Shown one piece after another: positions 36,579 through 36,938 of a DNA stretch of 64,000 bases; position 1 is the first letter of the stretch, and every line of letters starts with the position of its first letter. This DNA comes from a virus (lineage: Duplodnaviria; Heunggongvirae; Uroviricota; Caudoviricetes). Both the position numbers and the translations under genes were made by a program. The stretch is from the IMG/VR virus record IMGVR_UViG_3300018065_000012. One strand, 5' to 3'. The notes beneath the pieces were generated by a model. It saw nothing but the letters and a program-made list of their open reading frames with translations. It made no database searches and was not told the origin of the DNA.

Positions 36579-36938
36579 ATGACATAGGTACGCAAAGACA
36601 ATTTTGTTCTTGTCCGCAAAGACATTCCTCTTGCGCAACAGCTTGTTCAGGCAGCACACGCCGCCTACGAAGCTGGCGCTCAATTTCAAACAAGCTTACC
36701 TTCAAACAACTATTTGATCTTGTGCGAGGCTCCCGACGAGGATTATCTCTGGATACAGAAAGCACGTCTGGAGAGTCGCGGAATTGCTTGCACAATCTTC
36801 AGAGAACCTGACCGCAACAACGAAGCTACGGCGTTGTGTACGGAACCTGTTTCCGAAACGCAGCGTCGTGTTTTTTCGCGTTGGAAGCTTTGGAAGGAGG
36901 AAAACCATGCAAGACTTGAAACAGTTTCTCGCGGATGA
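36579..36938 (+). CDS. PTH2-like peptidyl-tRNA hydrolase family protein with in-frame TAG at codon 3
   Basis: RBS AAAGGAG 8 nt before ATG; reading ATG ACA TAG GTA. Downstream frame gives FVLVRKDIPLAQQLVQAAHAAYEAG ... ACTIFREP ... TALCTEP, matching the PTH2 pattern (vivvrtDL..GKiaAQcaHAa ... irDAG ... aiGP). There is no in-frame ATG/GTG/TTG after the TAG until codon 46, so full-length product requires TAG read-through. Confidence 0.4.

Follow-up and report, generated by a model that had tools for sequence, protein, structure and literature searches.

The viral sequence IMGVR_UViG_3300018065_000012 (Caudoviricetes) was analysed as a stretch of 64 kb, which is called the window here and in which nearly all genes lie on the + strand. 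It carries a suppressor transfer RNA (tRNA) gene with the anticodon CUA and, downstream of it, a gene resembling peptidyl-tRNA hydrolase 2 (PTH2) whose third codon is an in-frame TAG, and these two elements, considered as a pair, are the subject of this study. The PTH2-like gene is preceded by a promoter-like site of the sigma-70 type, TTGAAA-17-TATAAT (36529..36557, +), which was found by consensus match alone and agrees at 11 of 12 positions, as an earlier note on this DNA had proposed when it assigned the gene its own promoter with a TTGAAA -35 element at 17-nt spacing. A Shine-Dalgarno (SD) motif, AAAGGAG, was read from the sequence at 36565..36571 (+), where the same note had named it, although the spacing to the start codon is 7 nt and not the 8 nt given there. 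A leader of two codons follows (36579..36584, +), consisting of ATG (36579-36581) and ACA (36582-36584) for Met-Thr, and then the amber gate, an in-frame TAG at 36585..36587 (+) whose next codon is GTA, so that the base after it is G. The body of the PTH2-fold protein extends over 116 codons and a TGA (36936-36938) at 36588..36938 (+), and its 3' end overlaps the next open reading frame (ORF; 36907..37344).

The gated frame, read from 36579 on, translates as M-T-*-VRKDNFVLVRKDIPLAQQLVQAAHAAYEAG..., where * marks the stop, and its first residues are M-T-*-V-R-K-D-N-F-V-L-V-R-K-D-I-P-L-A-Q-Q-L-V-Q-A-A-H-A.... As had been claimed, the frame beyond the TAG runs uninterrupted through its 116 sense codons to 36938. 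The assembly ERZ27256776 has the same ATG ACA TAG with 0 mismatches across the gene, and the same start region was read in the assembly ERZ27256790; since the TAG is conserved in independent assemblies, a sequencing error is excluded. The closest relative (locus L172, 68% identity) also has ATG ACA TAG, with the same promoter (TTGACA-17-TATAAT at the equivalent place) and with a tRNA(CUA) gene as the sole tRNA in 12 kb. No RNA structure stimulating read-through was predicted at the gate (folding z = 0.43).

The suppressor tRNA gene occupies 35505..35579 (+) and was detected by ARAGORN as well as by the Rfam tRNA model (67.9 bits, E 1e-12). Its 3' end lies 999 nt before the gated ATG, which matches the distance of about 1 kb reported earlier. 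Its cloverleaf is canonical, the CCA end is encoded and the discriminator base is U, and this tRNA is the sole intact one that ARAGORN and Rfam found in the window; a promoter-like site belonging to this tRNA gene itself was not found. Among related loci, the tRNA(CUA) genes vary greatly in sequence and cluster with no isoacceptor family, a diversity that fits a gate located where any residue is acceptable. The window tRNA is 80.6% identical to tRNA-Sup-CTA of Stenotrophomonas phage DLP_5 (L175, MG189906, 50270..50342).

Two assignments of this tRNA were considered, and neither was upheld. ARAGORN labels it 'Pyl' on the strength of its anticodon alone. Pyrrolysine tRNAs have a non-canonical cloverleaf with a short D loop lacking G18G19 and a 3-nt variable loop, and they go together with pylS and pylBCD genes; the window tRNA carries GG in a D loop of 8 nt, its T arm contains GGTTCAAAT, and the general tRNA model aligns to it over its full length with 67.9 bits, while the pylS and pylBCD genes were not searched for. 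An early impression of a tRNA-Cys-like acceptor stem found no support in alignment scores. As a separate observation, the stop TAG (35512-35514) of the zinc-ribbon ORF upstream (35290..35514) falls within the 5' end of the tRNA(CUA) gene.

The window protein matches the Pfam family PTH2 (PF01981) at E 0.014 with 16 bits, below the gathering score of 23, over profile positions 5-103 of 115. It has 54 close homologues. In an alignment of 17 diverse family members (A1), PF01981 is matched by 16 of the 17 relatives, the best at E 2.2e-7, and ORF364 of Xanthomonas phage XacN1 reaches 25.3 bits, above the cut-off. The A1 family profile matches the solved archaeal Pth2 chains 1wn2 and 2zv3 at E ~2e-3. 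An AlphaFold (AF2) model calculated on A1 has a pLDDT of 85.3 and a pTM of 0.78, and when it was submitted to Foldseek, the 13 best PDB matches were all Pth2/Bit1 (TM 0.65-0.76, probability 1.00). The PTH2 likeness put forward in the earlier note is borne out by these matches; the gated protein is predicted from its structural model to have a PTH2 fold, profile comparison indicates that the family is a divergent PTH2 subfamily, and the protein is a probable tRNA-ester hydrolase of this fold. Like archaeal and eukaryotic Pth2 (Bit1, SsoPth2, AF2095), it has the fold and the skeleton R-x-D-L...Q-x-x-H-A...(I/F)-R-(D/E)...T-A-x-x-x-x-P, and it differs from them in its score below the Pfam threshold, in a deletion at 'KGK', in a Lys-to-Gln change, in the motif 'REPD' and, in some members, in fusions to an HDIG domain.

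Eleven residues are invariant across the 17 members of A1, so that purifying selection on the body is clear, and the polar ones among them are Q24, H27, E54, R75, E76, D78 and T84. A profile search of 1.84 billion representatives placed 1,435 clusters (50% identity) in the family at E <= 1e-10. Libraries of defence and counter-defence systems gave nothing for the gated protein, which had no match in PADLOC and no family in PHROG. An anti-defence role for the PTH2-like gene, which was raised earlier, is a suggestion from the sequence.

Homologous loci were collected from three public collections and from GenBank phage records (pooled non-identical n = 135), and the gate was read, upstream of each core match and in frame, as the last stop before the conserved core; two loci were additionally inspected by eye. 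The gate, defined as ATG, 0-7 sense codons and TAG, is present in 115 of the 135 pooled loci (85%). Comparison of orthologs, which the earlier note had named as the test that might refute its reading, therefore came out in favour of a retained TAG. An IMG/VR scan with A1 gave 235 relatives, from which 80 loci were fetched, mostly on contigs of 50-500 kb; in 68 of these 80, the stop nearest to the core on its 5' side is TAG and an ATG stands 1-8 codons ahead of it, and a further locus (L063), gated on an upstream HD-domain gene, raises the viral total to 69/80. JGI and other metagenomes contributed 65 further non-identical loci, 57 of them gated and a few with a bare ATG TAG. Just eight loci, mostly on contigs of metagenome-assembled genomes of Planctomycetota, were found among 185,579 species genomes, and six of the eight are gated. 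A tblastn search of GenBank phages found the gate in three cultured jumbo phages (XacN1, Xoo-sp13 and RAS14).

The leaders are 1-8 codons long including the ATG, most commonly two codons (60/115); examples, with # for the gate TAG, are MS#I, MT#THY, MNDP#, MPDT#, MKAAL#, MGFT# and MTH#. The gate stop is TAG in 115 pooled loci, TAA in at most 4 and TGA in none (0), although genes of these loci mostly terminate at TAA or TGA and least often at TAG. Around the gate TAG of the 115 loci, 33 different codons occur on the 5' side and 22 on the 3' side; the flanking codons vary, so the TAG itself is the conserved thing. One clade (L028, L029, L030, L032, L033, L037 and L064) has a second conserved in-frame TAG, 16-17 codons past QxxHA in a loop, as in RRFAPG#DQEHPHL, and two of its loci, L028 and L032, contain two tRNA(CUA) genes. 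In the ochre variant L065 (9950..9970, MKRPDT*LHQ), TAA stands at the homologous 'PDT*' place with no usable later start, and the locus holds a tRNA(UUA) gene at 4631..4703, which makes it the single case of stop and anticodon changing together. Another ochre variant, L136 (408..434, MKKELDNQ*VQPESKL), lies on a contig too short to hold a tRNA.

The signals around the gate place initiation before the TAG. The leader ATG is preceded at a distance of 4-17 nt by an SD-like tetramer in 67/115 loci, or in 56/66 if only those with a GC content >= 38% are counted; for a start directly after the TAG, such a tetramer is found in 5/115, compared with 10/115 in an upstream control. Many viral loci lack any ATG, GTG or TTG from the TAG up to the core. 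Directly 3' of the gate TAG stands A in 66 loci, G in 44 and C in 5, and T is never found there (0), so that a purine follows in 110/115. According to the classical literature on context effects, amber codons are suppressed more readily when a purine follows, and termination is strongest before a U. Real TAG terminators of the same loci are followed by a purine in 95/173 (55%) and by T in 43/173 (25%); compared directly, a purine follows 53/56 gates vs 95/173 real TAG stops (p 1.6e-7).

As well, the gated genes are linked to tRNA(CUA) genes. ARAGORN found a same-strand tRNA(CUA) at <=10 kb in 49/69 gated vs 2/11 ungated viral loci (Fisher p 0.0013, which is indicative only as the loci share kinship). 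A tRNA(CUA) lies at <=100 nt of the gated gene in 23 viral loci, with a mode of 31-60 nt 5' of the leader ATG. In 7/8 of the loci from the genome collection, tRNA(CUA) is the sole tRNA in the fetched stretch of ~6 kb (~3 kb around the gene).

The gate is also specific to this family. When all loci were scanned for an ATG followed by 1-7 codons, a stop and >= 90 open codons, the background was alike for the three stops (TAG 91, TAA 92, TGA 137), and the PTH2 family appeared as 62 extra TAG cases. The scan revealed no gated families beyond the PTH2-like family, its HD fusions and chimeras with HNH endonucleases. In L063 the two domains are encoded separately; the stand-alone HD-domain gene, 40 nt after tRNA(CUA), bears the gate and is followed by an ungated PTH2-like gene.

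Several other explanations of these observations were weighed. According to the first, the leader is a mini-ORF at whose TAG translation terminates, to re-initiate on a non-canonical start such as ATT or GTN, and the tRNA is irrelevant. The post-TAG codon is indeed often ATT (43/115) or GTN, ATT is a rare bacterial start codon, with infC as an example, and 'start-stop' leaders of the form ATG TAG occur in a few loci. Any stop should serve such a leader, yet 115 loci have TAG there, no more than 4 have TAA and not one has TGA, and the 22 post-TAG codons include non-starts such as ACC, AAC, GGT, GAC, CTA and, in the window, GTA. Re-initiation also leaves the linkage to tRNA(CUA), often the sole nearby tRNA, unexplained, and in L065 the TAA is accompanied by tRNA(UUA). 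We regard re-initiation as unlikely.

Alternatively, the TAG could be a neutral passenger that is read by the suppressor without regulatory value, that is, a case of constructive neutral lock-in. This explanation would lead one to expect the position in a tail that is not conserved and can accept any residue, and likewise the ungated relatives that still adjoin a tRNA(CUA) gene (L054, L090, L128 and L130). However, when one base of TAG is exchanged, a sense codon results in seven of the nine possible cases, so that a neutral TAG should have decayed; it is nevertheless kept in 85% of loci, although the proteins are only 30-60% identical and the flanking codons change. The next base is selected as well, being a purine in 110/115 and never T, and the gate is kept in domain fusions and sits on the first cistron where the gene is split (L063). 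A passenger without function is improbable on these grounds.

A third explanation assumes a genome-wide code 15, with TAG read as Gln and the window TAG as one of many recoded codons. Suppressor recoding is well documented in phages (bioRxiv 10.1101/2021.08.26.457843), a tRNA(CUA) is present here, and the public gene call P0001 rendered the window TAG as Q. In contrast to what this would require, the coverage of the window by a greedy ORF map is 0.87 under code 11 vs 0.86 under code 15, and code 15 does no better than code 11 in the related loci. TAG is the terminator of about nine ordinary genes on the + strand of the window, and after each of them comes either a fresh SD with an ATG or another stop codon, the latter in the gene 46930..47631 (47634 including the second stop), which ends in the tandem stop TAG-TAA. 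A codon-usage scan together with direct reading found no other TAG on the + strand of the window with coding signal on both sides, and the PTH2-like gene is the only TAG-interrupted gene found in the 64 kb. Pairs of long ORFs joined by TAG (171) are not commoner than those joined by TAA (209) or TGA (364). Within the family, in-body TAG was seen solely as the second gate of one clade, and the 551 Gln codons of the gene bodies are CAA (333) or CAG (218). XacN1 was likewise annotated and analysed as a standard-code genome (PMC5852040). The window is not a recoded genome, and code 15 is a highly improbable account of its TAG.

It is very hard to believe that the true start is TTG 36714 (codon 46), which would yield a protein of 74 residues. 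This TTG is the first ATG, GTG or TTG in frame past the TAG, as the earlier note had stated, and it opens the ORF that a standard gene caller lists (36714..36938). However, a protein begun there would lack both strand 1 and helix 1 as well as the invariant motif Q24/H27/A28, and no SD precedes the TTG, while ATG 36579 has a strong SD and, further 5', a promoter close to consensus. Finally, a pseudogene or an assembly error, as a lone in-frame stop at codon 3 in metagenome-type sequence might suggest, is almost certainly not the explanation, because the same start is found in two other assemblies and the gate in 115 loci, including three cultured phage genomes finished by Sanger or Illumina sequencing, and because the body, with 11 residues invariant in 17 members, is under purifying selection.

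The gate is thus, to the extent that comparison of sequences can tell, conserved, specific for TAG, specific for one family, preceded by an SD, placed in a non-terminator context and linked to tRNA(CUA) in standard-code genomes. The earlier note had proposed programmed read-through of this TAG by the nearby tRNA(CUA), and as far as sequence goes, with the TAG conserved and the tRNA linked, the proposal holds; we infer that read-through takes place. Going beyond that note, the window is not recoded, which makes the TAG a dedicated gate on one gene, and the arrangement is a widespread module. We consider it likely that the phage suppressor tRNA and the single amber-gated gene for a tRNA-ester hydrolase form a dedicated switch, the output of which is tied to read-through of UAG.

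In the proposed switch, ribosomes recruited by the SD would initiate at ATG 36579, join fMet to Thr and then reach the UAG. If host release factor 1 (RF1) alone answers, synthesis would stop after two residues; if the phage tRNA(CUA) is made, charged and able to outcompete RF1, the UAG would be read as an amino acid and the full PTH2-fold protein of 119 residues would be produced. The amount of hydrolase would then follow the capacity to read UAG, that is, charged tRNA(CUA) vs RF1. Since the N-terminal tail that holds the gate is not conserved, the protein should tolerate whichever amino acid is inserted, and an aborted attempt would cost only a di- to octapeptide. Where the tRNA is on the same transcript as the gene, the pair would make a coherent feed-forward loop.

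Such a switch would most likely serve to match the amount of hydrolase to the activity of the suppressor. That the gate is specific to a hydrolase, and that ungated relatives also stand beside tRNA(CUA), suggests that the job of the enzyme is linked to the suppressor. In a clean-up version, the enzyme would clear the peptidyl-tRNAs that arise from suppression and from the minigene-like leader, its dose being matched by feed-forward. In a closed-loop version, the enzyme would act on tRNA(CUA) itself in a loop of either sign, and as a third option the gate might be a pure delay, or a leak-proof AND gate for a dangerous enzyme.

Some observations weigh against a dedicated switch of this kind. Back-up stops after TAG terminators are not enriched, the distance to the next stop being longer if anything, so that the genomes bear no mark of strong suppression in general. 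A minority of loci, including XacN1 and Xoo-sp13, have a GTG, TTG or ATG between the TAG and the core, and low-level direct initiation is possible in them. A same-strand tRNA(CUA) at <=10 kb was not found in 20/69 gated viral loci, in 19 of which the fetched stretch has none; in these 20 the tRNA may sit elsewhere in the genome, as it does in the terminal repeats of XacN1. The window tRNA is itself 1 kb off, and the gene has its own promoter, so that co-transcription is not obvious. In DLP_5, which carries the similar suppressor tRNA, there is no gated PTH2-like gene in the stretch around the tRNA cluster.

The enzymatic part of the proposal is weakened by the residues of the family. In the HMM alignment to 1wn2 and 2zv3, the lysine of 'GK' is replaced by Gln beside a two-residue deletion at the 'KGK' loop, and the aspartate of 'RDAG' is replaced by Glu, with an invariant F-R-E-P-D ('REPD') instead. 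The Lys of the G-K loop and the Asp of R-D-A-G are reportedly the catalytic residues of Pth2, according to work on S. solfataricus. Given these substitutions, peptidyl-tRNA hydrolase activity of the family is not assured.

It is conceivable, if rather doubtful, that the pair is a closed-loop controller of UAG decoding, in which the PTH2-like enzyme acts on the suppressor tRNA. If the loop were negative, the enzyme would strip the amino acid from aminoacyl-tRNA(CUA) and read-through would be clamped at a set level whatever the RF1; if it were positive, the enzyme would free tRNA(CUA) from short peptidyl-tRNA dropped off at the leader, giving a sharp switch. Such a controller, if true, would be a natural analogue of the autoregulation of release factor 2 (RF2), made from a tRNA and a hydrolase, would keep suppressor tRNAs under selection in standard-code phages and would maintain the stock out of which complete reassignment of TAG evolves time and again.

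The gate is also present in three cultured jumbo phages, with the leader MK#TIKAMK in Xanthomonas phage XacN1 (L081, AP018399, ORF364), MKK#NFNLMK in Xanthomonas phage Xoo-sp13 (L082, MN047793, Xoosp13_327) and MK#TLNKLKNTEQTKGQTILQHGLSVW in Stenotrophomonas phage RAS14 (L083, OP752703, WAX21615). All three encode a protein of ~283 residues with an HDIG domain at the N terminus and the PTH2-like part at the C terminus. The deposited starts of these genes lie past the TAG, and the annotated GTG start of RAS14 drops a conserved N-terminal stretch that is reachable solely across the TAG, so the three gene models probably need correction. Similarly, many database proteins begin at profile positions 7-14 without the first strand (P0020, P0029, P0038, P0044, P0046, P0058, P0063, P0090, P0093, P0100, P0116, P0150, P0151 and others), as is to be expected of a standard gene caller when the true start is hidden behind the TAG. 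Gene callers would mis-annotate this family systematically, through truncated starts, as in RAS14 and many entries, or through a spurious 'code 15' on a short contig.

XacN1 has two tRNA(CUA) genes, located in its terminal repeats, and its authors found no target of the suppressor tRNA after in-silico read-through of 18 amber stops (PMC5852040). The candidate target was missed because the test was applied to gene ends and not to a stop two codons past a start. XacN1 also carries a separately annotated peptidyl-tRNA hydrolase, ORF295 (PMC5852040), which suggests a specialised rather than a bulk role for the gated hydrolase. Among other standard-code phages, the target of the tRNA(CUA) was not identified in Summit, and the question was left open for RsoM2USA. 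According to a previous survey, PTH2 genes are known in group 2/3 jumbo phages and were proposed to rescue ribosomes after tRNA cleavage (Iyer et al. 2021, PMC7824862), a proposal compatible with the clean-up version described above; the survey mentions an amber codon or suppressor tRNAs 0 times. The preprint on phage recoding (bioRxiv 10.1101/2021.08.26.457843) does not mention a hydrolase. No earlier description of a start-proximal amber codon in a PTH2 gene, or of its pairing with a tRNA, was found in the full-text literature outside subscription journals, and the pair of tRNA(CUA) and amber-gated PTH2 is apparently an undescribed, conserved and widespread module.

Gene-specific read-through supplied by a tRNA and used as a dedicated switch is not categorically new as a kind of mechanism, and several known systems resemble parts of it. 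Code 15 phages (crAss-like, Lak and other gut phages) are alike in that a phage tRNA(CUA) reads in-frame TAG in a standard-code host and in that expression of TAG-containing genes is conditional on this tRNA, which was proposed to be regulatory; they differ in that many Gln-aligned TAGs are spread over 26-71% of genes, most of these being late genes for structural proteins and lysis (bioRxiv 10.1101/2021.08.26.457843). In the PTH2 module, TAG is still a terminator, the TAG is confined to one family and to one codon (two in one clade) within the first eight codons, and the gated product is itself a putative tRNA-acting enzyme. Stop-codon recoding in phages has reportedly been described also by Ivanova in 2014, Borges in 2021/22 and Peters in 2022.

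The gene prfB, which encodes RF2, contains an early in-frame UGA that is passed by a +1 frameshift and sets its own synthesis by sensing stop decoding. It resembles the module in that an early in-frame stop in a translation-factor gene senses how the stop is decoded, and differs in that it relies on frameshifting and senses its own termination activity, whereas the PTH2 module would use suppression by a dedicated tRNA and possibly feedback by the product. A synthetic amber-suppressor AND gate is said to have been built by Anderson and Voigt in 2007. Such gates and feed-forward leak dampeners also combine an early amber codon in the output gene with a co-expressed tRNA that is needed for output, and they make a coherent feed-forward loop if tRNA and mRNA share a transcript (Ho et al. 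2021, PMC7969014). They were engineered in E. coli, whereas the PTH2 module is a natural, conserved and mobile pair with diverse tRNAs.

In phage Qbeta A1 and in gag-pol of murine leukaemia virus (MuLV), a stop is read at a set frequency with the help of its 3' context. Host tRNAs serve there, the stop lies at the end of a functional ORF and two functional products result, whereas in the PTH2 module the dipeptide before the stop is useless and the dedicated tRNA is virus-encoded. The bar minigenes of phage lambda are two-codon ORFs ending in UAA that trap tRNA as peptidyl-tRNA in Pth-deficient cells. They share with the PTH2 leader the drop-off format of a strongly initiated ORF of 1-8 codons and a stop, and in the module the linked product is a homologue of the hydrolase. 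Lambda bar minigenes are free-standing and are themselves harmful by-products; the PTH2 leader is the in-frame head of a hydrolase gene, and drop-off at it is hypothetical.

With this module, the 'orphan' suppressor tRNAs of phages would gain a first recurrent target, and XacN1 and its relatives a candidate. It would offer a reason why suppressor tRNAs persist in unrecoded genomes, which bears on how stop-codon reassignment begins. A tRNA-ester hydrolase linked to stop-codon decoding points to a new level at which the infecting phage may control read-through and the recycling of tRNAs. Moreover, the module would be a natural and widespread amber-suppressor logic gate that comes with a ready panel of diverse tRNA/leader pairs.

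Other genes were found near the module. Directly 5' of an intact gated gene, three loci have chimeras of HNH and NUMOD3 homing endonucleases (L044 1709..2452, L047 4195..4938 and L061 9233..10009) that carry a copy of the gate and the first ~20 codons (MT#INHKLIIITRRDL...), and the homing endonuclease would be expressed via the same amber gate. When ORFs within ~4 kb were clustered, no third conserved partner gene was found in more than 14 loci. Phage transfer-messenger RNA (tmRNA) genes occur within a few kb in several jumbo-phage loci (L007 10928..11303; L038/L040 ~4500-5150; L060 6645..7023; L066 5196..5570), and further coordinates of tmRNA genes or of ORFs with a GGQ motif are 5628..5983 in L075/L078 and 7863..8417 in L053. 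An ORF of 184 residues with the GGQ motif (release-factor-like) lies near the module in 7 loci, and CCA-adding enzymes are found near it in some jumbo-phage loci.

In the window, a split tRNA-like gene was observed at 37349..37592 (+), with a 5' half GCGCGTGTAGCTCAGCGGAAGAGCG... and a 3' half ...GGTTAGGTTCAACTCCTAACCACGCGCACCA that would form a perfect acceptor stem with CCA around an insert of ~160 nt. At a relaxed threshold alone, ARAGORN reports it as an intron-containing tRNA for Lys(ttt), a call that is unreliable, and Rfam detects neither a tRNA nor an intron family at this place. Two same-frame neighbour pairs in the window are split by TAG codons only, namely 22736..23119 with 23129..23515 and 53639..53929 with 53987..54352. 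The first pair consists of tandem paralogues starting MK[IT]RSGFVSNSSSSSF, each ended by TAG ahead of a fresh SD and ATG. Amber suppression would fuse both pairs.

Finally, 25 reading frames on the + strand of the window, mostly of small proteins, share the motif ~pP..C-[P/x]-[F/Y]-x-L-E-H-[LIVF]-[MV]. This looks like a massively expanded zinc-ribbon-like family. The motif lies mostly a few residues ahead of the stop, often with a CxxC further upstream, and it starts at 14744, 26031, 34802, 35019, 38261, 39082, 40861, 41220, 41621, 46250, 46893, 50450, 50674, 52523, 52734, 53825, 54290, 54495, 57474, 57866, 60299, 60787, 61181, 61758 and 63472.

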